Below, piece after piece: positions 1,755-16,462 of a stretch of DNA of 64,000 bases. Position 1 is the stretch's first letter. Every line of letters starts with the position of its first letter. The position numbers and the translations under genes were made by a program. The notes under the pieces were generated by a model, which made no database searches, was not told where the DNA came from, and saw nothing but the letters and a program-made list of their open reading frames with translations. The DNA lies in contig CBFGNV010000012.1 in assembly GCA_965650275.1 (NCBI GenBank), positions 3,111 to 67,110 of the forward strand, given 5' to 3'. The DNA is from an uncultured Fluviicola sp. GTDB lineage: Bacteria > Bacteroidota > Bacteroidia > Flavobacteriales_D > Crocinitomicaceae.

Positions 1755-3125
1755 TTACAGTTCTCGGTTTGGATCGAATTGCTCAAGGTAGTCAGCAACT
1801 CTTCTTACAAATTGTCCACCCAATGAACCATCAACTACGCGGTGGTCATAAGAGTGAGACAAGAACATTTTGTGACGGATCCCGATGAAATCTCCGTTCG
1901 GAGTTTCAATAACAGCTGGCATTTTACGAATTGCTCCTAAAGCAAGGATAGCAACTTGTGGCTGGTTAATGATAGGAGTACCCATCACGTTACCAAATGT
2001 ACCAACGTTTGTAACTGTATAAGTTCCACCCTGGATATCTTCCGGCTTCAACTTGTTGTCACGAGCATTACGTGCCAATTCATTCACCGCCTTAGCGATT
2101 CCTGTCAAGTTCATTCTGTCTGCATTCTTGATAACAGGAACAATAAGATTTCCTGAAGGAAGTGCAGTGGCCATTCCAAGATTAATATCTTTTCTCTTAA
2201 TGATTGTAGTTCCTGAAACAGAAACATTGATCATAGGGAAATCTTTAATTGCTTTAACAATTGCTTCCATGAAGATAGGAGTGAACGTCAGGTTTTCACC
2301 TTCGCGTTTTTGGAACTCATTCTTCATTTTGTTTCTCCAGTTCACGATTGTTGTCACATCAGCTTCTACATAAGAAGTAACGTGTGGTGAAACGTGAGTT
2401 GACATTACCATGTGGTCTGCGATCAACTTACGCATACGGTCCATCTCGATAATTTCATCACCTGGATTCGGAACTACAATTGGTTCTTTGATGTTTGAAA
2501 GGAATCCTCCACCCATTGGCGCTGCCTGAGCAGGTGCCGGTGTAACAACTCCATTCGTGGAAGGTGCCGGAGTACTTACTTGAGGAGCAGGTGACTGAGC
2601 GGGAGTCGAAGTCCCGGAAGTCCTGTTTTCAAGGTAAGTGATAATATCTTTTTTGGTAACTCTTCCACCAGTTCCAGTTCCTGAAATGTTTTCCAATTCG
2701 TTGTGTGCAACGCCCTCTTTTTGAGCGATACTACGAACAAGTGGTGAGTAGAATTTACCGTTTTCGTTTGATTTTGGCAAAGCATCAGCGCTTACAATTT
2801 CTTTAGCCGCTTCAACCGTTTTTTCAACTGCAGCAACAGGAGATTGAGCGGCAGAAGGTGTAGATGCAGTTGGTGCAGCATCTCCGTCAGTAGAGATAAT
2901 TGCAATTACATCTCCAACTTGAGCAACCTGGTCTTTTTCGAAAAGTCTTTGGATCAAAACTCCTTCAGCTTCTGAAGGCAATTCATTATCAACTTTATCT
3001 GTAGCTACTTCTACTAAAGGTTCGTCTAATGCAACAGTGTCACCAACATTCTTCAACCAGTTTGTAATGGTTGCTTCTGTAACACTTTCTCCCATTTTAG
3101 GTAGACGAATTTCTATTTGCGCCAT
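1755..3125 (-). CDS. 2-oxoacid dehydrogenase E2 (dihydrolipoamide acyltransferase)
   Basis: Lipoyl domain (EVATDKVDNE), E3-binding domain (SPLVRSIA...GTGGRVTKKDI), catalytic SYDHRVVDG motif. Substrate class not assigned. Confidence 0.95.
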   Translation of the reverse strand: MAQIEIRLPKMGESVTEATITNWLKNVGDTVALDEPLVEVATDKVDNELPSEAEGVLIQRLFEKDQVAQVGDVIAIISTDGDAAPTASTPSAAQSPVAAVEKTVEAAKEIVSADALPKSNENGKFYSPLVRSIAQKEGVAHNELENISGTGTGGRVTKKDIITYLENRTSGTSTPAQSPAPQVSTPAPSTNGVVTPAPAQAAPMGGGFLSNIKEPIVVPNPGDEIIEMDRMRKLIADHMVMSTHVSPHVTSYVEADVTTIVNWRNKMKNEFQKREGENLTFTPIFMEAIVKAIKDFPMINVSVSGTTIIKRKDINLGMATALPSGNLIVPVIKNADRMNLTGIAKAVNELARNARDNKLKPEDIQGGTYTVTNVGTFGNVMGTPIINQPQVAILALGAIRKMPAVIETPNGDFIGIRHKMFLSHSYDHRVVDGSLGGQFVRRVADYLEQFDPNREL

Positions 3126-3153
3126 AATTATTGAATCTCAATTAAAATTGGCA

Positions 3154-3161
3154 CAAAAATA
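3154..3161 (-). promoter_or_regulatory. Bacteroidetes sigma70 -7 element TATTTTTG upstream of the E2 gene
   Basis: Matches TAnnTTTG, about 30 nt upstream of the ATG. Confidence 0.55.
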
Positions 3162-3268
3162 AAGGAAAAAAAATATAAATAAGCTAGTAATGTGACATCT
3201 ACCTAATAAATCCATTTAGTTTTTAGAAAACTACAGGAATAAAGAGTGTTTTTCCAAGTGATAGTCTA

Positions 3269-5224
3269 TTATTGCGGTCGACGATCTAACTTTTTCCAGT
3301 TGCGCAGAATCAGCTGTAGGTCAAGTAGTAAATGATATTCACGGGCATAGAGCAAGTTCATTTTAATGATCATTGCATCTTCAGTCACCAAATCTTCATT
3401 ATACGGAACCAGAATTCCCTTTTTTAAACGCGGGAGATCCAACTCGTTCATCACTGTTTTTCCATAACTCACGCATGTGATCTTTGAAAAGAGAATGCCA
3501 ATTGCATTCCGAAATAATTGCTTCTTATGTTTGAAGAACCAACATAGAATAGGGAAGGTTACGAGTAGAATTATTCCTGTAAGAACATCTAAAAAACGTT
3601 TGTGACGCTGCTTGATTGGTTCGCTCAAAGCGTTTATATCAAGAATATACAGATCACCAGCTGTTTCAATGGAATTTGAACCTATCAGAAAAGAACTGTC
3701 GGGCTGGGCAATTTTGAAATCTACATTGGGCTTGTCAACGGCAATGATCCAATGGATAATGTCTTTTGCTGTGGTATCTTTTGCACAGAAAATCACTTCG
3801 TCTATCTCATGAATTTGAACTACCTGCCCCAATTTATCCATAGTCAAATCTTCGTTCTGAACATTTTCATTGGGTGATACATGGATAATCTTCTCAATTT
3901 TTGGCTGAGTTATTTTCACCAGTTCCGAGACACGTTTGAATTCTTCTTCTGACCCGATAACGGCAAAGTTGCTGTTTTTTCTACCGTTCAGAATAAAGCG
4001 TTTTCCAATGGTAAAGTGCAGGAAAATTCGAGACAAAAGGAAATAGACAATTGCCCATGCTGCTCCTGTGAAAATGAATAAACGGGAGAATTGCCAATCC
4101 TTTGGAAGCAAGGCGTAAACCATTAAAATCAAGGCGGTTCCAATGGCAACTCCCATCACTGAGCGTTTTAATTTCGCTGGAAAATCATAAACTCCCTGAA
4201 ATAATGACGATAAAAACCAAATGGCGGTATATCCGAAAATTAAGTAGTGGGTGACTTTTTCAGGAAAGAAAATCTCGGCTCGTTTCCAGTAAGTGGTTAA
4301 AGCCAGCATTCCGAAATAGATGTAAGTAAAATCTATTACCGGAAGTGTGATCTTCTTGAAAAAACGATTCAATAATGCCAGTCCTGCTCTGAAATAAATA
4401 GCTGCATTAATGCATAGTGAGAAGAGCTTTGCGTTGTTCTGACTAAAGTGTTTCTGTGCAAAAATGACCATTGCACGGTAGAATACGAAAACGTAGTTTA
4501 CACTGCTTTTCTTGGTGCTTTCACCTTTGTAATGGATGATCCTTGTCTCTGGGAAATAAACGTTTTTGTAGCCGCCAAGAATAATTCGGTATGAAAGATC
4601 AATGTCTTCACCGTACATGAAAAACGTTTCGTCCAACAACCCAACTTTATCCAAAGCCTCTTTACGCATTAGCATAAAAGCACCACTCAGGATCTCAATT
4701 TCGTTGGTTTCGAATTCGCTTAGATTTCCCATGTGGTAACGGGCAAATCGTTTCGATTTCGGGAAAATCTTCGACAATCCGAAAATCTTGTAAAAAGCAA
4801 CAGCCGGAGTAGGTAAACCGCGTTTAGATTCTGGTAAGAAAACTCCTTTACCGTCAACCATTCTAACTCCCAATCCACCAACTTCAGGATGTTCTTCCAT
4901 GTAATCGACTACTTTTTTCAAAGTGTCTTCTTCAATTACCGTATCTGGATTGAGTAACAACTGATATTTGCAGTTGGATTGCAGCATTGCCTGATTATTG
5001 GCTTTAGAGAATCCGACGTTGTCTTTATTGGCGATGAGTTTTACCCATGGGAATTTCTCTTTCACCATTTGTACTGATCCGTCAACACTTTGATTATCGA
5101 CTACCCAAACCTCTGCAGGTTCCAAAGTCATGGCTCTGGCAACGGAATTAATGCACTGCTCTAAAAAGAACACCACATTGTAATTCACGATTATCACTGC
5201 AATTTTTGGTTCCTGAGTATTCAA
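3269..5224 (-). CDS. GT2 glycosyltransferase fused to a TM region and a CoA-binding/sugar-transferase-like C-terminus
   Basis: IIVNYN, VVDNQSVDGS, LLLNPDT, FFMYGEDIDLS motifs; several TM helices; C-terminal KRFLDVL...LDLQLILR resembling a Bac_transf remnant. Confidence 0.85.
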   Translation of the reverse strand: MNTQEPKIAVIIVNYNVVFFLEQCINSVARAMTLEPAEVWVVDNQSVDGSVQMVKEKFPWVKLIANKDNVGFSKANNQAMLQSNCKYQLLLNPDTVIEEDTLKKVVDYMEEHPEVGGLGVRMVDGKGVFLPESKRGLPTPAVAFYKIFGLSKIFPKSKRFARYHMGNLSEFETNEIEILSGAFMLMRKEALDKVGLLDETFFMYGEDIDLSYRIILGGYKNVYFPETRIIHYKGESTKKSSVNYVFVFYRAMVIFAQKHFSQNNAKLFSLCINAAIYFRAGLALLNRFFKKITLPVIDFTYIYFGMLALTTYWKRAEIFFPEKVTHYLIFGYTAIWFLSSLFQGVYDFPAKLKRSVMGVAIGTALILMVYALLPKDWQFSRLFIFTGAAWAIVYFLLSRIFLHFTIGKRFILNGRKNSNFAVIGSEEEFKRVSELVKITQPKIEKIIHVSPNENVQNEDLTMDKLGQVVQIHEIDEVIFCAKDTTAKDIIHWIIAVDKPNVDFKIAQPDSSFLIGSNSIETAGDLYILDINALSEPIKQRHKRFLDVLTGIILLVTFPILCWFFKHKKQLFRNAIGILFSKITCVSYGKTVMNELDLPRLKKGILVPYNEDLVTEDAMIIKMNLLYAREYHLLLDLQLILRNWKKLDRRPQ

Positions 5225-5340
5225 GGTTTGTTTTCTACAATTGGTTTAACGCAAACTTTCGAGGTTTAGCATAATCCGAGTAAAAACTCTTTGGGATTAT
5301 GTAATTTCGTAGTTGCATGCAAGTTTAAGCATTTACAGCG

Positions 5341-5913
5341 GTGAAAATAATACTCATAGATAATTTCGATTCGTTTTCTTACAATCTTGTTCATTATTTT
5401 GAGCAGTTGGATGCTGAAATTACGGTGGTGAATAATCTGGAAATAGATCCGGAAATGCTTCTGGATTATGACGCTTGTGTGTTGTCGCCCGGACCAGGTT
5501 TACCAAAAGAAGCTGGTAGATTAATGGAGGTGGTTGAGTTTGCTGTCAAGAATAAAATTCGAATGCTGGGTGTTTGTTTGGGAATGCAGGCTATTGCTGA
5601 ATATTTCGGAGATGAATTATACAATCAGAAGGTAGTGAAACATGGAACTACAGCTCTTCTTCGGACCCAAAATAATTCGATTATTTATCAAAATTTACCT
5701 GAACAATTTAAGGTTGGACTTTATCATTCCTGGGCAGTGCAATTGAAAACGGATTCTCCTTTGATTCCAACAGCTGTTTCTAGTGATGGAGTATTGATGT
5801 CTTTGGAGCATAAAGAACTGCCTGTTTACGCTGTTCAGTATCATCCGGAGAGTATTTTGTCGGAGCACGGGTTGGGGGTTCTTGCTAATTTTTTGAAACA
5901 CATAGTCACATAG
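5341..5913 (+). CDS. Glutamine amidotransferase, anthranilate/aminodeoxychorismate synthase component II (TrpG/PabA)
   Basis: IDNFDSFSYNL, LSPGPGLP, GVCLGMQ, YHS and QYHPES motifs. Confidence 0.92.
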   Translation: MKIILIDNFDSFSYNLVHYFEQLDAEITVVNNLEIDPEMLLDYDACVLSPGPGLPKEAGRLMEVVEFAVKNKIRMLGVCLGMQAIAEYFGDELYNQKVVKHGTTALLRTQNNSIIYQNLPEQFKVGLYHSWAVQLKTDSPLIPTAVSSDGVLMSLEHKELPVYAVQYHPESILSEHGLGVLANFLKHIVT

Positions 5914-5970
5914 AAAAAAAATAGACACAGTAGCTTAATATGCTATATTTCAAACCTAAAAAGAGATGTC

Positions 5971-6180
5971 ATGAAAAAGGAATACTGGGACGTAAATGAC
6001 GAGCAGGTTATTGAGAAAACGGGAAAGAAAATTGAGGAATGGATTGCTATCCTTGACGAATTTAAAGCGGCTGAACAGAAATCAAATGATGTTGTTGCGC
6101 ATCTTCAAAATACGTATAATGTCCCTCGTTACTGGGCAAGAACATTGACGACTCTTTACCTGAAACAAAACGAAAAATAA
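5971..6180 (+). CDS. Small DUF4287-like protein
   Basis: 69 aa; EKTGKKIEEW...VAHL...YWARTL pattern. Confidence 0.6.
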   Translation: MKKEYWDVNDEQVIEKTGKKIEEWIAILDEFKAAEQKSNDVVAHLQNTYNVPRYWARTLTTLYLKQNEK

Positions 6181-6239
6181 ATCTCCCGCGAAGAGCGCAA
6201 AGTACGCAAAAACAATTTAATTGAATTGAATATCTCAAC

Positions 6240-6722
6240 ATGATTGACGACCTACAAATTATTTATCCGGGAATGCATCCTTTGCCAGGGGCAATGCTTA
6301 TGATGGTCCTCGCCTTTTTCGGACTCTTAGCAATAATAAGCTTGGTTATTACTTTTAGGTTATTCAAAACAGCAAAACGAAAATACACTCCCTATCTATT
6401 TCTTGTTCCATCCATTTTAATCATTGTATTTATTGTATACAACTGGATTGGTTACAATTCCATTTTCAACAAATATGAAAGACAACTGATAGGCACTTTC
6501 TACTGTTCTGAATCCAAAGAAAAAATTTGGATAAATTCAGATAAAACATGGATTTTAAAAGATCAAAATCAAATTAAACAATGTTCAGGAACCTGGGAAT
6601 TCATTGCTTCGGAAGACTGGTTTTATTGGAATATTAGCGAAAACAATATTATTCGTATTCAAACCGGGGATCCAAAGATCTTACGCTTTCGTTCTGGATT
6701 GGAATTTATTAGAAAAGACTAA
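6240..6722 (+). CDS. Hypothetical membrane protein (2 TM + soluble domain)
   Basis: 160 aa ORF with two hydrophobic segments. Confidence 0.6.
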   Translation: MIDDLQIIYPGMHPLPGAMLMMVLAFFGLLAIISLVITFRLFKTAKRKYTPYLFLVPSILIIVFIVYNWIGYNSIFNKYERQLIGTFYCSESKEKIWINSDKTWILKDQNQIKQCSGTWEFIASEDWFYWNISENNIIRIQTGDPKILRFRSGLEFIRKD

Positions 6723-6830
6723 TTTGAGTAAAATTAAAGTTGACGCAGCATCCGTAAAACTATGATCACTATGTTCCTACTATGTGACTATGTGTTTAAA
6801 CTATCCCGAAGTGTCGGGAAAAGTTGTTTC

Positions 6831-7337
6831 CTATGCGTTTTTCAATACCTTTTCGTAAGCTCTCCTCGCTGAACCCCTAAAGAACACTTCTCCACAATAT
6901 GTATATTCTAATCTGTCGAGAATCTTAAGCATGGGAACATTGTCATAATTCGTATCGACCTTAATACTAAAAACATTATTCTCAATCGCTACATCTTCAA
7001 TCATTCGGAAAAGCTCAGTTGCAATTCCTTTTCCTTTGACAGCGTTAGATGTTGCTACACGATGAATAACTACGTAATCACCATTGGTCAACCATGTACC
7101 CTGAATATCTGTGTAAGCTGGTTCAACTTCGAAAATAATTGCTGCGTAAGCAATGATGGTTTCATTCTCGATCAATACATAACCAAAACCATGGTTGATG
7201 TCGTTTTCGACAGTGTCGGGATTTGGATAACCGTCTTGCCATTGCTGACTCCCATCTTGTCGTCGTTGTTCGATAGCTTGTTGAAGTATTTCCCAAATTG
7301 CCGGGATTTCGGATAGATTTGCTTTGCGGAGGATCAT
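6831..7337 (-). CDS. GNAT family N-acetyltransferase
   Basis: IHRVATSNAVKGKGIA acetyl-CoA motif and KVDTNYDNVPM. Confidence 0.9.
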   Translation of the reverse strand: MILRKANLSEIPAIWEILQQAIEQRRQDGSQQWQDGYPNPDTVENDINHGFGYVLIENETIIAYAAIIFEVEPAYTDIQGTWLTNGDYVVIHRVATSNAVKGKGIATELFRMIEDVAIENNVFSIKVDTNYDNVPMLKILDRLEYTYCGEVFFRGSARRAYEKVLKNA

Positions 7338-7541
7338 TGGTATTGAAAATTCAAACGAAGATAAAGCGATTTTTTTGAACCGCTAAGAAAGAAGAACGCA
7401 AAGACTATGTCTCTTTGCTCACTTTGTTTCTTTGCGTTTTATTATTTCGAATTTATGAATTAAATAAGTGTTAACCCGATTTGCTAAGATGAACCATTCG
7501 TTGAGATTTCTGTAATTTCCAGTGATTAATGAAACTGCTCC

Positions 7542-8846
7542 ATGAAGTACTTGACTTTTCTTTGTTTTCTCATCCCAGTTTTATGTTTGTCGCAGAATGC
7601 CGCAGCTATTAAATTGATTAAGGGAAGACAACATGTAGCGAACCATTCACAGAAGGAATATCAATTTGTGATTGAAGGTAACAAATCGCACGGGCATGTT
7701 CCACTCGTTGTAAACGATATTTTTTCCTGGGACACGCTTTCAAAAAAGCAACTCGGAAAAGAGTATATTCTTTCCTTTAAGAACGAATCGAAGTTCCCGC
7801 TTTATGTATTGGATATTTCTGCGCAAAGCCAAAATTTTGATGTGAAAAACATCGGGAAAGCGATGATTCTACCCGATTCAATGGTTCGATTAAGTTTTCG
7901 ATGTGATACAGCAGGATTCGGAGATTTTTACGGAAATATTGCGATTTACTACAACAGAAATAATGCAAATGAATACTACGATATGTGGATGTATGGTTTT
8001 CAACCGTATAAGAATAAAGGTGTTACTCAATTGAACACAGCACTTCGCAGATTAGAGACAAAGAAGCTTATCGTACTCGACGATAAATTGACATCAACGA
8101 ATAAATGCAAAATCAAGGTTATAGAAAAGGACACGTCTTATTATCCAAAGCTGATCCAGGAGAATGGTGAATGGGGTTGTGTTTTGAACCTGAGAAACGA
8201 TTCGTATACTGCCGTTGAAATCATAGATGAGACTGGAAAAGTAAAGGGAAAAGGCTTTTTGGAAAATGATTTTATGAAGCACAATATCTTTCTGCACCTC
8301 CGTCCTGAACCTCCTAAAATACACACTTATAATCGTGGACCAGTAGCTTATAAAGCACTTGATTCTCTCTATTTTGTAAGTTGGACTGGTGATTTTAAGC
8401 AAGACGAAGTGATTACCTATTTGAAGTCGAAAGGAATAGATGCCAGAAATAGTTCATTAGTTAGTTTCGTAATGAAGGATAAAGCTAAAGTGCTTGCCTT
8501 ACAGAAAGAATTGACGTTGTCGAAGTACAAGATTGCTATTCTTCCGGCGATATCTTATTCAGAAGTGAACGAATTTGGTTGGGGCGGAGCATGTCGGTTT
8601 TATACTAATAACTTTGAAATTTCCTTCTTCAACCATGTTTCCAACGAGCGAATCGAACAGATCTTTAAACAACATGGAATTACGAATTATTATGTGCGGG
8701 AAGAAACCAACCAGGAAAAAAAATACACTTTCATACTTCCAGTAATTGTTGACCTGAAATACATGACTCTGCTTGATAAGCTGTGGCAGCTATCAGAAGT
8801 AACATCTATCGAACAGGAAGATCGTGGGATTGATGGCATTGATTAA
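7542..8846 (+). CDS. Secreted hypothetical protein with a probable N-terminal Ig-like (DUF1573-like) domain
   Basis: Signal peptide; FKNESKFPLYV...ILPDS...FRCDT Ig-like pattern. Confidence 0.6.
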   Translation: MKYLTFLCFLIPVLCLSQNAAAIKLIKGRQHVANHSQKEYQFVIEGNKSHGHVPLVVNDIFSWDTLSKKQLGKEYILSFKNESKFPLYVLDISAQSQNFDVKNIGKAMILPDSMVRLSFRCDTAGFGDFYGNIAIYYNRNNANEYYDMWMYGFQPYKNKGVTQLNTALRRLETKKLIVLDDKLTSTNKCKIKVIEKDTSYYPKLIQENGEWGCVLNLRNDSYTAVEIIDETGKVKGKGFLENDFMKHNIFLHLRPEPPKIHTYNRGPVAYKALDSLYFVSWTGDFKQDEVITYLKSKGIDARNSSLVSFVMKDKAKVLALQKELTLSKYKIAILPAISYSEVNEFGWGGACRFYTNNFEISFFNHVSNERIEQIFKQHGITNYYVREETNQEKKYTFILPVIVDLKYMTLLDKLWQLSEVTSIEQEDRGIDGID

Positions 8847-8858
8847 CCTTCTCAAAAG

Positions 8859-10274
8859 CTATTCCTGATAATAAGCATCCCAAAGTTTGTTTCGAAACTT
8901 GTTTGTTGGATCAACGCGCTTTTTGAGTTCGAAGAAAGCATTGGATTCCGGATAGGCATTTGCAAATTGTTCAGTTGTAGCGTGAATTTGATAGGGCAGG
9001 TAGTAACTTCCATTGCATGAGATCGACGCATCAATTAACAATTGTGTCCACGCTTTTACCTTGTCTTTATCCTTTTGTTTTGTTCCTTGTTTGTAATAGA
9101 TCACAAAGGCAAAAACGTCTTCTCTCGCCCAGGCCAAAAGTGATCCCGGATCTTTCTTCGCATGTCGAATGGAAATATTGATCGCATTCACCTTATTTTC
9201 TCTCAGAATTGACCTTAAAAGTGGATAGAACTTATCGAACTCCTGAACCGGAACAAAATATTCCTGCAAAACATAGGTTGAACGCTTTCTTGATTTCGGT
9301 TCCAGTTCAAGCACGGTGTAACTGGCTTCGTAATTTCGCCATTCTACTGGATTTTTACTATAAACAATCGGGTCGAACAAATGCTGTCGAAGCCATTTCC
9401 CACCCGGATATTCCGAGATCAATTTAAAAGCAAAACGATTGAAGCCATAGGTTTTATCTTCCGGAACCAGTCGGTGTTCTACGGTCACCTCTTTATCGGT
9501 TTCACGAAAGGAAACTTCTCTTACTTTTTTATAGCGTTTTGGATAAATATCCGCATTGTGAAACACAACTGTAGAATCGTTTTGAACATGTTCCATGAAG
9601 TAATCTTTGTATTCCGAAATAGGAAGCTTTTTATCGGTTCGTTCCATTTTTACATTGTCGGAAAGCAGTAATGTAGCTTCTGTAATTACGCCTAATCCGC
9701 CGTAACCACCAATTGCACCAAAGAACAATTCGCTGTTTTTGGTTGGACTAGCGGTGATCAATTCTCCATTGGCAAGCACCAGTTTAATTTCCTGAACAGA
9801 AAGAATGATCGGACCTTCACCAATGTATCTGCCATGAACATTTACGCTCAAAGAACCGCCAACAGTGAAGTTTGCATAAGACTGCATAATCTTCACCGAA
9901 AGATTGTATGGATCAATAAATTCTTGAATTTTTCGCCAGGTGATGCCTGTTTGAACCGTAATGGTTTTTTCTTCAGCCGAAAAATGAACAATACTGTCAA
10001 AGCTCCGCATATCAATCTGAAGCGCTTGTTCGGTAGCGGTTTGACCGCCCATGCTGTATCGCCCGCCACCAATGGAAATTGGACCTTTGTGATTTTTCAC
10101 CGCGTTCACAATCTCACTGGTAGATTTTGGTGCAAGTATAGCGTTAACAACAATTGGATTCAGCTGCGTAATATCGTTGACAATCTTTGTCGTGTCCTGA
10201 CCATACAATGCACCATGTAATTGTGCAGTTGCAAGTAAACATAGGATGGAAAAACGATAAAACAGTTTAGGCAT
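8859..10274 (-). CDS. Secreted FAD-binding oxidoreductase (FAD_binding_4 / ALO-like)
   Basis: GGGRYSMGGQ, TVGGSLSVNVHG, GGYGGLGVI, VDPTNKFRN motifs. ATG 10274 preferred to the track's 10343 because a signal peptide follows it. Confidence 0.85.
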   Translation of the reverse strand: MPKLFYRFSILCLLATAQLHGALYGQDTTKIVNDITQLNPIVVNAILAPKSTSEIVNAVKNHKGPISIGGGRYSMGGQTATEQALQIDMRSFDSIVHFSAEEKTITVQTGITWRKIQEFIDPYNLSVKIMQSYANFTVGGSLSVNVHGRYIGEGPIILSVQEIKLVLANGELITASPTKNSELFFGAIGGYGGLGVITEATLLLSDNVKMERTDKKLPISEYKDYFMEHVQNDSTVVFHNADIYPKRYKKVREVSFRETDKEVTVEHRLVPEDKTYGFNRFAFKLISEYPGGKWLRQHLFDPIVYSKNPVEWRNYEASYTVLELEPKSRKRSTYVLQEYFVPVQEFDKFYPLLRSILRENKVNAINISIRHAKKDPGSLLAWAREDVFAFVIYYKQGTKQKDKDKVKAWTQLLIDASISCNGSYYLPYQIHATTEQFANAYPESNAFFELKKRVDPTNKFRNKLWDAYYQE

Positions 10275-10381
10275 GTTTATGTGTGGTAATGAAGAAGGGT
10301 AAAAGTAGGATAATTTTCTTTTTTCGAATTCAACACAAGTCACAAGAGGTTTTAAGGCTTGAAGATTTGGATTGAGTGTTT

Positions 10382-10888
10382 TTATTTGTTGCGATCTTTT
10401 AGCAGTTGATCAATCCGTTCTTTGTCGAACAAAAGTCGCTGTTTGAAAATTTCCAGCATAGCTAAATAATCTTCTTTTGAAAAATTCAATTCCTGAATTT
10501 GATCGAACCATTCTACCGTTGAACCCACTTTCTCCGCTTCCCATTCGCTGGTTTTGTCTGATCCAAGTTGCTTCCATTGAATGATATCGCCACAATTTCT
10601 AATTTCAGCTACAATCAATGTGCACGAAAAATCATTGTCGTCCGGACACATCAAAATCGGACAAACGGAAGTTTCATTCTCATCCGGTAATATTCGTTTC
10701 CAGACCACTTCCTTTTCATCGTTTCGATCCATCCAATACACGAGGGTTGGAATGAGTCCTTTGTAACTTTGCTCAGGATAGAGCTCATCCAACTTTTCGT
10801 CCAACCAATAACCGTCAATGTGATAGTTAATGAAATCCCAATAGTCTTCATAATCGCTTTTATCCAGTATTCCTTCTATTTTGTTCAT
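10382..10888 (-). CDS. Acidic hypothetical protein with a CPILMCPDDNDFSC motif
   Basis: 168 aa ORF packed in a same-strand run. Confidence 0.65.
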   Translation of the reverse strand: MNKIEGILDKSDYEDYWDFINYHIDGYWLDEKLDELYPEQSYKGLIPTLVYWMDRNDEKEVVWKRILPDENETSVCPILMCPDDNDFSCTLIVAEIRNCGDIIQWKQLGSDKTSEWEAEKVGSTVEWFDQIQELNFSKEDYLAMLEIFKQRLLFDKERIDQLLKDRNK

Positions 10889-10892
10889 GGTA

Positions 10893-11501
10893 TTACTTGT
10901 CTAGGTAGCTTGCGGGTCCGTGATATAGAATTCCATTGACAGTTTTGGTTTCTTTCTCAAATTGACTAGGATTTATTGTTCCATCAAACGATTCAGAATA
11001 AAAAAGACTTTTATCTTTTTTCATTTTCAATCTGAATTTGGTTTTCATTTTTCCGTTGTACTCTTTAATTGGAATCATCACATATTTTCCAGGTTCAAGA
11101 CTCAACGGTTCAAAATAGCTGTTCCCGCAACCGCTGTAAACCCAATATTCAATTGGTTGCCATTCTCCTTCAGCATTTTGTGCTTCCTGAATCATAATCA
11201 GGCTGCCGTCTTGACGGTTAGCATTGAATATTGAATCGGTTGTATTGATGAGGTATGCTGTAAAATAATCTTTAGGATTAGATTCCATCCAAACAAAGGA
11301 ATTCGTATCCAGATCTTTTACTTTTAGATTTTTATCAAAGTAAAAGTAAGTTTGATTTGGTCTAAGCTCAGAAAATGTAGAGTCGATATCCAAAGGTTCT
11401 GAACATTCATAAAATGCCCGTCTGTTTCCTTTATCGCTTTTGTTAAGAAAGCTGCAGAACAGAAGTAATACTAGGACAAAAAGGAATGGTTTTCTATTCA
11501 T
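10893..11501 (-). CDS. Hypothetical exported protein or lipoprotein
   Basis: Hydrophobic N-terminus with Cys; ATG 11501 (the track uses TTG 11531). Confidence 0.65.
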   Translation of the reverse strand: MNRKPFLFVLVLLLFCSFLNKSDKGNRRAFYECSEPLDIDSTFSELRPNQTYFYFDKNLKVKDLDTNSFVWMESNPKDYFTAYLINTTDSIFNANRQDGSLIMIQEAQNAEGEWQPIEYWVYSGCGNSYFEPLSLEPGKYVMIPIKEYNGKMKTKFRLKMKKDKSLFYSESFDGTINPSQFEKETKTVNGILYHGPASYLDK

Positions 11502-11543
11502 AAGTGATATTTTATTACCTAATACATTCAATTACTCAAAAGT

Positions 11544-12617
11544 TCATTTTGACGTTTTCCAAACTTCGAATTTCTTCCCATTGAATTTGTAAACACCATT
11601 TTCATGCGTTCCCAGCCAGATATTTCCAGAATTATCCGAATAAATGTAAAACGTATGGATGTCTTTTCCATTGTTCTGAACAGGATATCGAATAATCTTC
11701 TTTCCATTGATGCAATAAACACCGTCGTTATATGTGGCAATCCAAAGATTGTGCTTCTTGTCTTTTGAAATGGATAAATATTCGTTCAGATTATCATTTC
11801 TTTTTTTGTCCAGATTTCCGACACTCTTTTCTTTTGTGTAGAATCCTTTTGAAGATGATTTCTGGTTATAAACGTTGTACTTATAAGCAGAATTGAACCA
11901 GAAGTATCCGTTTTTATCTTCGATTATTGAGCGTACTCCATTCGAAGGTCCATCATGAAGTTCTGTGACATCTTCTTCAGCAATCCATTGAAAGTTCTCG
12001 CCGTTGAATCTGCAAGCTCCTAATGTTGCAGTTCCGAACCAAACATTTCCTTTGCTGTCGTTGTAAATGGTATAAACGGCGTAAGGATTTGGTCGATCTG
12101 GATATTTTGCCCTGAGCTCTTCTCCAACCGGAACAGGTGGAAGTTTCAGGCTGTGTAGTTTTTCTCCGTCGTAACGAAAAATCAAACCTTCCGATTGCCA
12201 GTTTTTGAACCAGAGATCGTCGGGATTCAATTTCCATTCGCTTTCGGTCGAATTGGCTACCAACAATGAGGTAAACTGCTTTCCATCGAATCGACATACA
12301 CCTGAACTTGTACTTAAATAGAGATTACCTGATTTGTCTTCTTTGATCTCTTCAACTCTGTTGCTTGGTAATCCATGTTTTGTGGTGTAATGAAGAATCG
12401 TTTTTCCATTGTAACTGTACAAACCCTCTTCCCAGCTGCCAAACCAGTAGCTGTTCTTTTTGTCTTGATAAACAACCATGATGTTTTTGCTGAGTTCAGT
12501 TACTGTGTCACCGCGTACGATGAAAAGATCTTTGCCTTTGCCCGGATTTGTAGATCCTGAGCAACCGCTTGCAACGAAAAAAGGTAAACAGAAGAAAAGA
12601 AGATTTCGGAGTTTCAT
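11544..12617 (-). CDS. Lipoprotein with two-component-regulator beta-propeller (Reg_prop) repeats
   Basis: Lipobox ASG-C; repeats of D..GN(L/I)W.GT (EDKSGNLYLST, NDSKGNVWFGT, EDKNGYFWFNS, SDNSGNIWLGT). Confidence 0.85.
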   Translation of the reverse strand: MKLRNLLFFCLPFFVASGCSGSTNPGKGKDLFIVRGDTVTELSKNIMVVYQDKKNSYWFGSWEEGLYSYNGKTILHYTTKHGLPSNRVEEIKEDKSGNLYLSTSSGVCRFDGKQFTSLLVANSTESEWKLNPDDLWFKNWQSEGLIFRYDGEKLHSLKLPPVPVGEELRAKYPDRPNPYAVYTIYNDSKGNVWFGTATLGACRFNGENFQWIAEEDVTELHDGPSNGVRSIIEDKNGYFWFNSAYKYNVYNQKSSSKGFYTKEKSVGNLDKKRNDNLNEYLSISKDKKHNLWIATYNDGVYCINGKKIIRYPVQNNGKDIHTFYIYSDNSGNIWLGTHENGVYKFNGKKFEVWKTSK

Positions 12618-12647
12618 AAAAGCAATATACAATGTTTCTTAATGAAG

Positions 12648-13181
12648 CTAGAAATTTAAAGTTTTCTGAACATTTTTCACTTTGCTTGTGATGAGTTTTG
12701 ATAGGTGGTCGAATTCTAATTCACTCATAGAGCTTCTTGGTAAAAGAACATTTGTATCAGAGAATAGCCAAATTAATCGCTCATTTATCACGGCTTTTTC
12801 AATAATCGTCCAATCCTGTTTCAGGGTGTCGTTGTCATGAATGTGAACGAATGAAGTTTCGTTATAACTTAAACGTAAATCTTTTGTGTTTTCAGCTTTC
12901 GTCAAGAATTCTTCTACACTTTTTCTCCATTGAATTACGTTACGTGCGGCTTTCCAAAATTCATAAACAACTGCGAATAAAAAAATAATCGCAAATAGTA
13001 AAAGTCCAAGTTCCTGAATATACCAGGAGTAAAAAGCTAGAGGAGGGACCAGAATCACTCCAATGATTAGAAAAGTGGATTGTTTTTTTGTGGATTGGCC
13101 AAAGAAAAGTTTGTGTTGATTATCACGAAAGTAAATTGATCGCAAATCGTCAATATCAACGCTCATTTTTATTTCCGTCAT
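12648..13181 (-). CDS. YcxB-like membrane protein
   Basis: Two TM helices, then the W..I...........LLPRSS-type C-terminal domain. Confidence 0.6.
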   Translation of the reverse strand: MTEIKMSVDIDDLRSIYFRDNQHKLFFGQSTKKQSTFLIIGVILVPPLAFYSWYIQELGLLLFAIIFLFAVVYEFWKAARNVIQWRKSVEEFLTKAENTKDLRLSYNETSFVHIHDNDTLKQDWTIIEKAVINERLIWLFSDTNVLLPRSSMSELEFDHLSKLITSKVKNVQKTLNF

Positions 13182-13224
13182 TTTATTTTTCTATTTACTT
13201 GTGTCGATACTTTTACAGTGAACT

Positions 13225-13584
13225 TTATTGCTTCAAATAAACAATCTTTCGCTTTTTAAACAAAGAAATCCTTTCTTTTCTGCAGATAACAATGACTCCA
13301 TCGTCCGTTTGATTCAGACTCAATTCATTGATGCTTTTTAGTTCGCTATTGAATTTGACAGGAGTTAGTTTCACAGAGTTTTTAGACACAGAATATTCTC
13401 CAATGCACAAAACAGTATCACCCCAAACTGCATATTGGTAGGTGTGATCACCATCGAAAATAAATGTTTCGTAGCAAGAAATTCCGCAAGTGTAACGGAA
13501 TTCTCCTTTGAGCAAGGGTTTGGTTTGAGCGAAAGTTGAAAAAGCTAAAAACTGCAACGAAAGGAAGATGAATTGTCTTTTCAT
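13225..13584 (-). CDS. Secreted hypothetical protein
   Basis: Signal peptide from ATG 13584 (MKRQFIFLSLQFLAFSTFAQ), 2 nt after the stop of the upstream nuclease gene. Confidence 0.6.
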   Translation of the reverse strand: MKRQFIFLSLQFLAFSTFAQTKPLLKGEFRYTCGISCYETFIFDGDHTYQYAVWGDTVLCIGEYSVSKNSVKLTPVKFNSELKSINELSLNQTDDGVIVICRKERISLFKKRKIVYLKQ

Positions 13585-13586
13585 GA

Positions 13587-14663
13587 TTATTCTCTCCTTA
13601 TCTTTCTTAGCCATGAATCCCATGATTCAACATCTAGACGAATTGATTCTGTTTCACGGTCGTGCCTTTTTTTACTTTCCTTCAAATCATTTTCGGTTCT
13701 TCCTCCAATGACTACGGTATACACATTAATGTCTTTATTGGAGTCAACTTCCAGGTGATCAGATGGTCCAATAAACGCATTGTAAATCTTAGAACCACTT
13801 TCAACAGCTTCTCTTATTTTATGAATCTTCTTTCTAAACTCATTACGATTCTCAGTAATATAGCGCATTCTTTGCCGCAACTGATGCATAGCACTTTCTA
13901 TTTTACTGTTGAATTTATCGTAATGTCCTTTATTGAAAATATTAAACTCAGCTCCTTTTACTTCCACGAGGATAACATCCATTCTAGATATTCCGGAAAG
14001 CACTACAAAATCAACATATCCATCACCTACAGGAAATTCAGAAAAACAAATGTAATCTTCTGTTGGGTGAGCATATACTTCCGCGAAAATGGATAAATCC
14101 TTTTTTAATAGATTCTGAATATCTTGCTCACTTGCTCCATTATCAATTAATTCTTGAATTGATAGTTTTGAAATTTTACCATCTTCTATTTCGAATTTCT
14201 TTTTAAGCCGTTTAATGTCATGAGAATTGGGTAAATTTAAAAGCGGGTTAATCTCCGTTCTGAGTTTTCCAATATCATTGACTAATCTAAGGTCACTCAT
14301 TGTTGGAGTTTCGAATTCCTTCATACTACAATCCACCAGTTCTGAGACTTTAGAGCGCTTGAGCGATTCCCATATTGGTCTGTTTTCACCGTCAAATGTT
14401 ACAAGCTCGAAAACTTCTCGTGAAACACCGCCCATTTCATAGTGCTCTATGAAAATCGTATTAGATGGTACTTCGTAGTTTTTTATTAGTGATTCAACAA
14501 TTGATTCAATAGAGTTTGTAATTGATGCAGAAGGATTTTCGTCTATTTCAGTGATTAGAGCCACAATTTTACCTGCTTTGTTATTGAATATTCGTAGACG
14601 ACATAAACCATCGTTTCTGGAGCCCATACAGGGATATCTGTATATCTTATCGCTAATTTTCAT
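13587..14663 (-). CDS. Shedu (SduA/DUF4263)-like PD-(D/E)xK anti-phage nuclease with an unassigned N-terminal domain
   Basis: C-terminal SEQDIQNLL...SEFPVG...VDFVVL...LVEVKG...SAMHQ...VVIGGR...ESWDSWL follows the DUF4263 pattern. The gene reads visibly more AT-rich than the flanking core genes. Confidence 0.75.
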   Translation of the reverse strand: MKISDKIYRYPCMGSRNDGLCRLRIFNNKAGKIVALITEIDENPSASITNSIESIVESLIKNYEVPSNTIFIEHYEMGGVSREVFELVTFDGENRPIWESLKRSKVSELVDCSMKEFETPTMSDLRLVNDIGKLRTEINPLLNLPNSHDIKRLKKKFEIEDGKISKLSIQELIDNGASEQDIQNLLKKDLSIFAEVYAHPTEDYICFSEFPVGDGYVDFVVLSGISRMDVILVEVKGAEFNIFNKGHYDKFNSKIESAMHQLRQRMRYITENRNEFRKKIHKIREAVESGSKIYNAFIGPSDHLEVDSNKDINVYTVVIGGRTENDLKESKKRHDRETESIRLDVESWDSWLRKIRRE

Positions 14664-14693
14664 TTAGATTTCTTCGTGAATAAGTGATTATTC

Positions 14694-14701
14694 CAAATAT
14701 A
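14694..14701 (-). promoter_or_regulatory. -7 element TATATTTG upstream of the Shedu-like gene
   Basis: Exact TAnnTTTG match about 30 nt upstream of ATG 14663. Confidence 0.55.
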
Positions 14702-14768
14702 AAAAAATGTATGAATTAAATCACTTCATGAAATTTGTGTATTCGTGGTTGATTGGAATAGTGTTAAC

Positions 14769-14801
14769 AAAAAAAAATCCCAGCTCAATTAAGAACCGGG
14801 A
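14769..14801 (-). terminator. Weak intrinsic terminator after the 63-aa peptide gene
   Basis: Imperfect TCCCGGTTC/GAGCTGGGA stem followed by T9 on the minus strand. Confidence 0.4.
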
Positions 14802-14824
14802 CTTCAATATCTTTAGAAAGTGAA

Positions 14825-15016
14825 TTAAGCAGCTTTCTTAGAGCAGCAAGAACCTCCTTTGCTTTCGCAACCTTTCTTAGTAGATTTTTTCTTCTTTTTC
14901 TTATCGTCGTCTTTCTTAACAACTACAGTATGATTTCCTGAAGCTGCAGCGTAAACGTTCGCAGACATAGATCCTACGAAAAGTGCTAGAGTAGCTGCTA
15001 CAAATACCTTTTTCAT
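14825..15016 (-). CDS. Small secreted Lys/Cys-rich peptide
   Basis: Signal peptide ending in VYA, then KKDDDKKKKKKSTKKGCESKGGSCCSKKAA. Codon choices resemble those of the ribosomal protein genes. Confidence 0.7.
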   Translation of the reverse strand: MKKVFVAATLALFVGSMSANVYAAASGNHTVVVKKDDDKKKKKKSTKKGCESKGGSCCSKKAA

Positions 15017-15063
15017 AATATTTTTAATTAATGTGTGTAATTACAGGGACTAATATACATTCT

Positions 15064-15131
15064 TTATTGAAGTACTCCAAGCTTCGTTAACTTAGCTTTA
15101 ACATCTTCACCAATTTTAACATCTAATGGTA
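15064..15131 (-). pseudogene. Orphan diverged copy of the psd 3' end
   Basis: Encodes PLDVKIGEDVKAKLTKLGVLQ* versus psd ...IDVKIGDDVQAKLTKLGVLK*. 53/60 nt identical between 15064-15123 and 15797-15856 (counted by eye). Confidence 0.85.
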
Positions 15132-15680
15132 TTACTTACATACCATATTGTAAAGCCTGATCATTTCCATGAACTCGTCTTCTTTCTTAGAATATTCACC
15201 TTTGAATCGTTTTACAAATTCGGGACATTCTTGTAAATATGGCTTAATGTTATCTTCGATTGTTTTGCTATTGATATCATATAAGATTCCTTCTGGTGTT
15301 CGCATAACAAATCTGTTTTTACTTGCTCCATCTGTTCCTGAATCTTGGTAGACAATAATCTTTCCATCTACTGCTCGCCATTCAAAACGTGAATAACCAT
15401 CGGGTTTATTCAGATTCTGTGGTATTTTATCAGACGTAATTCCATGATAATAGACTGTGGTTATGTTCTGAACATTTTCTTTTCCTTTAATACTGACCTC
15501 TTCTCCTTCAATATCTTTATAGGTGACTTTTTTTAAATCCCCTTGTGCACCAACTATGCACTCCAGTTCACTACAAAATGTAGTATCACTGTTGTTTACA
15601 ATAAAATAGTCTTGAGCTGAAACTTTCATCCCAGTAGCGATGAAGATGGATAGAATAATCTGGTTTTTAAGTGTTTTCAT
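15132..15680 (-). CDS. Secreted hypothetical protein
   Basis: 182 aa with a signal peptide (KVSA-QD); its stop directly abuts the psd-tail copy. Confidence 0.7.
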   Translation of the reverse strand: MKTLKNQIILSIFIATGMKVSAQDYFIVNNSDTTFCSELECIVGAQGDLKKVTYKDIEGEEVSIKGKENVQNITTVYYHGITSDKIPQNLNKPDGYSRFEWRAVDGKIIVYQDSGTDGASKNRFVMRTPEGILYDINSKTIEDNIKPYLQECPEFVKRFKGEYSKKEDEFMEMIRLYNMVCK

Positions 15681-15722
15681 TTAGATTAAATTATGAAGTG
15701 GTATTAAGAATTAAATTTAAAT

Positions 15723-15758
15723 AAAAATCGCGATCTATCAATATAGACCGCGATTCTT
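15723..15758 (-). terminator. Intrinsic terminator after psd
   Basis: AATCGCGGTCTAT/ATAGATCGCGATT stem followed by a T-run on the minus strand. Confidence 0.7.
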
Positions 15759-15796
15759 TATCTTTTTCTGAAACTTTTTAAGCAGAAATAATTTCT

Positions 15797-16462
15797 TTAT
15801 TTCAACACTCCAAGCTTCGTTAACTTAGCTTGAACATCGTCACCAATCTTAACATCAATCTGTGTTCCTAATGGTAAGAAAATATCAACACGAGATCCGA
15901 ACTTAATGAAACCGAATTCTCCTCCGGTTACTGCTTGTTCTCCTTCTTTTGCATAATAACAAATGCGACGTGCTACGGCTCCTGCAATCTGGCGGAACAA
16001 TACTTCTTGTCCGGTTGCATGTTCTACAACTACTGTACTTCTTTCGTTGTCTGTTGAACTTTTCGGATGCCATGCCACCAGAAATAATCCTTTGTGATAC
16101 TTCACGTATTTCACTTTTCCACTGGTAGGGTAGTAGTTGGCATGCACATTTAACGGCGACATGAAAATAGAAACCTGAATTCTTCTATCCTTGAAATATT
16201 CAGTTTCTTCTACTTCTTCAATAACCACCACTTTTCCGTCAGCCGGACAAAGCAAATCATTTGGTTCGAATGTAAATGTTCTCTTCGGGATACGGAAGAA
16301 TTGAACCACTAAATAGAGCATTACCAAACAGCCAAGGCTCAACAACCAGAACAACCAAGCCCAACCGGTCATTTGTAATAAATACCAATTTCCAACTTCA
16401 ATTGCTCCCAAAACCAATAATGCAATCAGAATTGTAGCTGTTCCTTCTCTGTGTAATGTCAT
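15797..16462 (-). CDS. psd: Phosphatidylserine decarboxylase proenzyme
   Basis: CPADGKVV, SIFMSPLNVHAN, RQIAGAVARRI, and FGSRVD self-cleavage motif. Confidence 0.93.
   Translation of the reverse strand: MTLHREGTATILIALLVLGAIEVGNWYLLQMTGWAWLFWLLSLGCLVMLYLVVQFFRIPKRTFTFEPNDLLCPADGKVVVIEEVEETEYFKDRRIQVSIFMSPLNVHANYYPTSGKVKYVKYHKGLFLVAWHPKSSTDNERSTVVVEHATGQEVLFRQIAGAVARRICYYAKEGEQAVTGGEFGFIKFGSRVDIFLPLGTQIDVKIGDDVQAKLTKLGVLK

Follow-up and report, generated by a model that had tools for sequence, protein, structure and literature searches.

A probable Type 1 Shedu immune nuclease of a catalogued subfamily in an uncultured Fluviicola, and the phage-encoded relatives of its N-terminal domain

The window analysed here is a stretch of 64,000 nucleotides from an uncultured Fluviicola sp. 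(assembly GCA_965650275.1, contig CBFGNV010000012.1, positions 3,111 to 67,110), and the gene in question, sduA, encodes a protein of the Shedu immune nuclease family whose features are collected in Table 1. Residues 177–350 match the Pfam family SduA_C (PF14082, formerly DUF4263) at E 8e-27 (94.8 bits; gathering score 27), which is well outside chance, and the PADLOC SduA model PDLC00403 aligns with residues 1–357 of 358 over profile positions 1–359 of 360 at E 9e-139. Both searches bear out the initial annotation, which had recognised the C-terminal DUF4263/Shedu pattern in this open reading frame (ORF) and proposed a Shedu nuclease; each of the motifs it quoted is present, with the key residues in invariant columns. 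A genome scan found this to be the single SduA_C gene in its own 4.26-Mb assembly.

Table 1. Coordinates of sduA, its encoded domains and the surrounding features in the window
Feature	Coordinates	Strand	Details and basis
Strain-specific variable region, ~9.9 kb, between psd and the GATase gene	5914..15796	.	Comparison with three congeners; Pfam and PADLOC scans
sduA, single-gene Shedu system	13587..14663	-	358 aa + stop; ORF, Pfam SduA_C, PADLOC SduA PDLC00403
N-terminal regulatory (sensor) domain, residues 1–112	14328..14663	-	AlphaFold2 full-length and domain-only models, conservation, charge
Helical linker, residues 113–176	14136..14327	-	AlphaFold2 helices 114–117, 125–138, 147–162, 166–174
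DUF4263/SduA_C PD-(D/E)xK nuclease domain, residues 177–358	13590..14135	-	Pfam 177–350
Catalytic-motif span	13881..14129	-	I E179 (+Q183), II D218, III E234-x-K236, IV Q261
Upstream intergenic region (110 bp), presumed own promoter	14664..14773	-	Includes TATATTTG at 14694–14701
Terminator-like hairpin ending the upstream small gene (14825–15016) and separating it from sduA	14774..14805	-

The catalytic motifs of the nuclease domain are intact. E179, D218, E234, K236 and Q261 are invariant columns in the family alignment (A1, 47 members), and the sequence patterns E179..IQ183..L, E209-F..G...V-D218-F, V-E234-V-K236, A258..Q261, VIGGR (318–322) and SWD.WL (347–352) were all located. Together with Q183, the five catalytic residues map onto motifs I–IV of Bacillus cereus SduA (BcSduA), namely E204, D249, E264/K266 and Q295 (Gu et al.), and onto the residues of Escherichia coli SduA (EcSduA) that were validated by mutation, namely E226, Q230, D269, E283, K285 and Q314 (Loeff et al.). 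The placing of E179 in motif I is putative, and follows from its spacing and from the E..Q pair at i/i+4.

The confident full-length AlphaFold2 model built with the family alignment (predicted local distance difference test score, pLDDT, 88.8; predicted template modelling score, pTM, 0.81) consists of an N-terminal domain (N-domain), a helical linker and the nuclease domain, and in this model the three-part layout is that of the Type 1/Type I Shedu architecture of Gu et al. and Loeff et al. An N-domain of ~110 residues joined by a helical linker had been predicted beforehand, and the model agrees, with an N-domain of residues 1–112 and four linker helices between residues 114 and 174. The linker also agrees with that described for the B. 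cereus and E. coli proteins.

This architecture is not new. PADLOC-DB 2.0 dates from 2023, and since the match to PDLC00403 runs over the full length, N-domain included, the architecture had been listed under Shedu by then. Among 5.8 billion proteins searched there were at least 351 homologous clusters, spread over many phyla, and the best 120 of these are nearly all ~360 aa long, with mostly full coverage and 43–68 % identity. Hosts of the subfamily include Flavobacterium, Chryseobacterium, Capnocytophaga, Paenibacillus, Clostridium, Burkholderia, Paraburkholderia and one archaeal metagenome-assembled genome, and many members carry the NCBI label “Shedu immune nuclease family protein”. sduA is a member of this known, large and already catalogued Shedu subfamily.

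The N-domain consists, in the AlphaFold2 models, of strands 2–10, 19–27 and 33–39, a helix starting at 48 or 52 and ending at 61, strands 70–75, 84–90 and 96–101, and a helix at 103–110; the domain-only model has a pLDDT of 91. It is acidic, with a net charge of −3 over residues 1–112, and the family means are −3.1 (1–112) and −5.3 (1–118 set). Five residues (C21, S47, T49, E73, W98) are invariant across Shedu-type, standalone and viral members, and four more (T38, N50, E53, Y75) nearly so; as the same residues are kept in all three kinds of protein, the conserved polar residues point to a putative binding or catalytic pocket.

Taken alone, the N-domain has no match in Pfam, NCBIfam, PHROGs or the PDB, as the initial annotation had anticipated in finding no sensor type to name for it, and a Foldseek comparison, as that annotation had proposed, gave no significant PDB neighbour for the domain-only model (best E 9e-3, TM score ≤ 0.37). 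The full-length model, searched against the PDB and BFVD, reached E ≤ 1e-3 with one uninformative viral protein only. Chains of PC4, Whirly and MRP were missing from the Foldseek top 50 of the N-domain model, and a Type 1A (sPC4/Whirly) N-domain was rejected, as no PC4 or Whirly protein stood in that top 50 and the order of elements differs. Gu et al. started from 5,401 Type 1 Shedu proteins and grouped their N-domains into 79 clusters and eight classes, including a catch-all class 1X. Their Type 1B (1,594 proteins) has the NRF1 fold, which has the core order b1b2a1b3b4b5a2 and no PDB homologue, and a positively charged cavity lies between the two core helices in every NRF1 cluster except N46. 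Comparison of the model with the published description gives the order b-b-b-a-b-b-b-a for the N-domain, that is, the NRF1 core string with one added N-terminal strand, and on balance the domain most likely has an NRF1-type alpha/beta regulatory fold.

sduA lies in an interval flanked by psd (15797–16462) and the GATase gene (5341–5913), which in this strain also holds several hypothetical genes and genes for a GNAT protein, a FAD oxidase and a Reg_prop propeller. In the three congeners, cdsA and psd are followed by a small lysine-rich gene, ~1 kb, the GATase gene and then two conserved genes. Neither the PADLOC nor the Pfam scans found a second defence system among the neighbours of sduA in the 9.9-kb region; a weak GajA match to the Reg_prop protein (E 0.002) was set aside as noise. 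The gene is present in one of 31 related genomes and absent from the other 30. Within the phylum, 34 of 401 genomes encode an SduA_C protein, and an N-domain of the sduA type is missing from all 29 other Shedu loci that were sampled there. A tblastn search of plasmids with the nuclease domain gave just two matches, both same-family proteins of Bacillus. Elsewhere, family members have unrelated neighbours in three other contexts, sometimes recombinases; across four other contexts, including a prophage, the neighbours differ and there is no conserved partner gene, as expected of a single-gene system. Setting and distribution together fit a mobile single-gene defence system.

The terminator-like hairpin, followed by the 110-bp upstream region with TATATTTG, suggests that sduA is an independent transcription unit. 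TATATTTG weakly resembles the Bacteroidota −7 element, TAnnTTTG. A scan for sigma-70 promoters gave 11 sites against 13 expected and is not informative for this organism. Downstream, an ORF at 13225–13623 on the reverse strand overlaps the 3′ end of sduA by 37 nt if its first ATG is used, and contains a signal-peptide-like start, MKRQFIFLSLQFLAFSTFAQ, ~2 nt past the sduA stop; it may encode a small secreted protein co-transcribed with sduA. On the other side, an orphan psd 3′ end (VKIGEDVKAKLTKLGVLQ*) lies at 15064–15140 on the reverse strand, directly after an inserted 182-aa gene (15132–15680), and 15 of its 18 residues are identical to the true psd C-terminus, which suggests that an insertion replaced the psd tail at the edge of the variable region that bears sduA. 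The G+C content of positions 13001–16000 is 33–35 % against ~39 % for the whole window, consistent with horizontally acquired DNA around sduA. In a different setting, a prophage-derived contig (locus L025, IMGVR_UViG_2617271017_000004, 2675–7032) encodes a 356-aa Shedu protein of the same family, divergent from a 310-aa reverse-transcriptase-like gene with a YADD motif and a 541-aa ATPase-like gene, and this locus looks like a retron-like defence hotspot.

The N-domain occurs well beyond Shedu proteins. Its profile (A2), searched against 1.84 billion representatives, gave 1,157 proteins at E ≤ 1e-3, and the best 150 of these comprise 46 full Shedu proteins, 12 truncated ones and a remainder that are short or otherwise fused. 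Part of the short proteins are contig-end fragments, and a distinct set of standalone proteins of 108–165 aa are complete genes. The initial annotation had suggested a likeness to a standalone small-protein family, and this likeness proved sound, as hhalign related the standalone set to the Shedu N-domains with a probability of 99.9 % (E 6.7e-36). The standalone family is homologous to the N-domain of sduA and retains C21, S47, T49, E73 and W98; it has no linker and no nuclease. Some of its members carry an N-terminal DUF6011 zinc ribbon. N-domain proteins with uncharacterised C-terminal extensions had no Pfam match, so that fusion of the domain to other known effectors finds no support here. 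Two such proteins, P0210 (345 aa) and P0251 (290 aa), have an N-domain followed by a C-terminal region that matches neither Pfam nor the nuclease profile of this family, and in P0210 two stretches match the N-domain, which may be a tandem duplication.

Many of these standalone relatives are encoded by phages. A scan of IMG/VR with a back-translated DNA motif, TEL-x-[DEN]N-x-G-x-S[VI]TN, matched 14 contigs of 7–340 kb, two of them above 330 kb; all 14 encode true N-domain members and the nuclease domain is absent from all 14 proteins. This motif-based pattern succeeded where scans of IMG/VR with the single proteins P0285, P0266 and P0280 had returned no match. The homologues on viral contigs (L055–L068, L019/L024) are 108–253 aa long, and the standalone genes in IMG/VR sit among small, co-directional genes of early type; one adjoins the small and large terminase subunits (L059) and another a family A DNA polymerase (L067). 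One DUF6011 fusion is found on a 62-kb viral genome, where it lies among ~35 tiny genes together with Phage_P22_Y8K6 and DUF2786 genes. At another locus (L010, 344–1584), a 113-aa standalone copy is followed after 6 bp by a gene for a 297-aa protein that scores 25.1 bits for DUF6685 (cut-off 24.6), and the two genes may form a module in which the sensor-like domain is a subunit of its own. A tblastn search of the cultured phage genomes in INPHARED gave one weak match with the N-domain and none with one standalone member, and in view of this near-absence the link to phages rests on the uncultivated contigs of IMG/VR. The domain is covered by no model in Pfam or PHROGs, and the literature searched mentions neither standalone homologues of the Shedu sensor nor anti-Shedu proteins.

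On our reading, which has a probability of about 0.82, sduA is intact and encodes a Shedu immune nuclease of Type 1, the type that bears an N-terminal domain, from a catalogued but biochemically unstudied subfamily. On the model of the two Shedu proteins with solved structures, its product would form a homotetramer through the C-terminal DUF4263 PD-(D/E)xK domain, with the helical linkers paired and the N-domains at both ends. The N-domains would hold the nuclease silent until an infection-specific cue is received, and phage DNA would then be nicked or cut at the active site formed by E179, D218, E234, K236 and Q261. Given its acidic charge and its invariant cluster of polar residues, the N-domain would be expected to receive a small ligand, the end of a DNA molecule or a phage protein in a pocket, and not to bind a long stretch of DNA backbone. 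The oligomeric state, the autoinhibition and DNA as the target are thus all carried over from the solved proteins, and the accessory distribution of the gene would be consistent with protection from phage.

Several observations weigh against this reading. The acidic N-domain (net −3 to −5) contrasts with the positively charged cavity of most NRF1 domains, and the literature searched yielded no experiment on any member of the PDLC00403-type subfamily. The clade is also remote from both solved Shedu proteins: phmmer with the sduA protein and searches with the profiles A1 and A5 against PDB sequences gave nothing relevant, Foldseek with the sduA model retrieved neither 8TI8 nor 8PS4, though both are in the library, and hhalign of the family against twelve other Shedu proteins of the phylum reached E 0.003 only, although the VDF, E-x-K, Q and C-terminal motifs were aligned correctly. 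The result against the PDB reflects divergence and not missing data, because other Bacteroidota Shedu queries match 8TI8/8TI9/8TIA, and a general profile also matches 8PS4/8PS5. Given this remoteness, tetramer formation, autoinhibition and DNA targeting are drawn at the level of the family.

One objection, that sduA is a mobile-element nuclease with a non-defence role (e.g. DNA processing) or an inactive relic, could draw on the lack of any other recognised defence gene in the 9.9-kb region and of experimental data for the clade, but it has very little to recommend it when the frame is intact, the catalytic residues are invariant under purifying selection and the patchy occurrence as an accessory gene is what defence genes typically show; moreover, Shedu is a single-gene system by definition, and one family member adjoins reverse-transcriptase-like and ATPase-like genes in a prophage. 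A more substantial question concerns the class of the N-domain, since its acidic charge, unlike that of most NRF1 domains, allows for NRF2 (Type 1C) or the unclassified Type 1X, either of which would still be a known kind of Shedu, with a non-nucleic-acid ligand. NRF2 is described by Gu et al. as a five-stranded, three-helix, three-layer sandwich that is not positively charged; the N-domain is acidic family-wide, as would be expected for NRF2, and its terminal beta-hairpin (84–90, 96–101) and short third helix (114–117) also speak for such a placement. However, the NRF1 string is recovered in full, with one more strand at the N-terminus, and the five strands and three helices of NRF2 stand against six strands and two main helices in the model, so that NRF2 or 1X is the less likely assignment, if one to be taken seriously.

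Two further proposals for the N-domain are much less probable. In one, it is a metal- or phosphate-binding and possibly enzymatic module, akin to half of an endonuclease/exonuclease/phosphatase (EEP)/DNase I fold, and a dimer acts on or recognises DNA 5′ ends. The only recurring structural neighbours of the domain are indeed partial matches of ~80 residues to TDP2, Nocturnin and DNase I (probability ≤ 0.93, ~20 % identity), and even phage homologues at ~30 % identity keep C21, T38, S47, T49, N50, E53, E73 and H74; yet all of these structural matches are non-significant (E ≥ 9e-3, TM score 0.24–0.37 over ~80 aligned columns) and profile searches of PDB sequences returned no EEP protein, which leaves the proposal improbable. 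In the other, which the initial annotation had put forward, the N-domain is a truly new class of Shedu sensor outside the existing classifications. Its lack of a match in Pfam, NCBIfam, PHROGs and the PDB and its absence from the other 29 Shedu genes sampled in the phylum would be in keeping with novelty, but PADLOC-DB 2.0 already held a full-length hidden Markov model of exactly the sduA architecture in 2023, the same architecture recurs in the clusters described above, pre-2023 RefSeq members in Firmicutes, Proteobacteria and Bacteroidota belong to the pool that Gu et al. clustered, and the topology agrees with their NRF1. The claim of a new class is not upheld, and we regard it as slightly less probable still than the EEP proposal.

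As one more member of a catalogued Shedu subfamily, sduA itself changes little; the value lies in the subfamily, which is widespread in Bacteroidota, Firmicutes, Proteobacteria and archaea and remote from both solved Shedu proteins. The new lead is a modest one, namely that an N-domain with strictly conserved polar residues is shared with many phage-encoded standalone relatives, which offers a testable route to the trigger or to counter-defence. A speculative and rather doubtful extension is that the sensor domain belongs to an unnamed family of mostly standalone phage proteins, and that the phage copies are either mimics or decoys of Shedu or the source of a captured module. As mimics, they would poison or decoy Shedu, either as partners of its N-domain or because they sequester the trigger; as a source, they would have provided Shedu with a module that recognises a phage-specific ligand. 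Either variant, if true, would give a direct handle on what this type of Shedu senses. Should the phage proteins interact with or mimic the sensor, the trigger would be revealed, and the phage standalone relatives could be the first anti-Shedu proteins.

Among known systems, the E. coli SduA (8PS4/8PS5/8PS6) is a nickase that senses DNA ends (Loeff et al. 2025); it shares with the sduA product the N-domain, helical linker and DUF4263 domain as well as the set of catalytic motifs, including the E..Q pair at i/i+4. EcSduA has 408 aa, and its 145-aa N-domain clamps the ends of double-stranded DNA via Trp25 and basic patches, whereas the N-domain of sduA is shorter (112 aa) and acidic; DNA-end sensing as in EcSduA cannot be assumed for sduA. 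That Foldseek with the sduA model misses 8PS4 is weak evidence here, since the homologous nuclease domain escapes these searches as well. The B. cereus SduA (8TI8/8TI9; Gu et al.), for which autoinhibition by the N-domain and linker is the working model, shares PD-(D/E)xK motifs I–IV, an N-domain of similar size and a helical linker; it is of Type 1A, with an sPC4/Whirly N-domain of ~117 aa, and the two nuclease domains are so diverged that only Pfam connects them. Type 1B Shedu proteins (Gu et al. 2023/2025), such as E. coli PD-T4-8, have in common with sduA the C-terminal DUF4263 core, the order of elements in the N-domain and the lack of a PDB homologue, and sduA differs in its extra N-terminal strand and acidic charge, NRF1 mostly having a positively charged cavity. 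The PADLOC models of PD-T4-8 type give no sequence match to sduA, and its Type 1B membership is proposed from topology only. Closest are the proteins of its own subfamily: WP_213300122.1 (Flavobacterium psychroterrae) and WP_084403278.1 (Paenibacillus antarcticus) align with it from end to end and have the same N-domain, linker, nuclease and invariant residues, and there is no difference of substance between sduA and the ~360-aa Shedu subfamily of PDLC00403 and NCBI.
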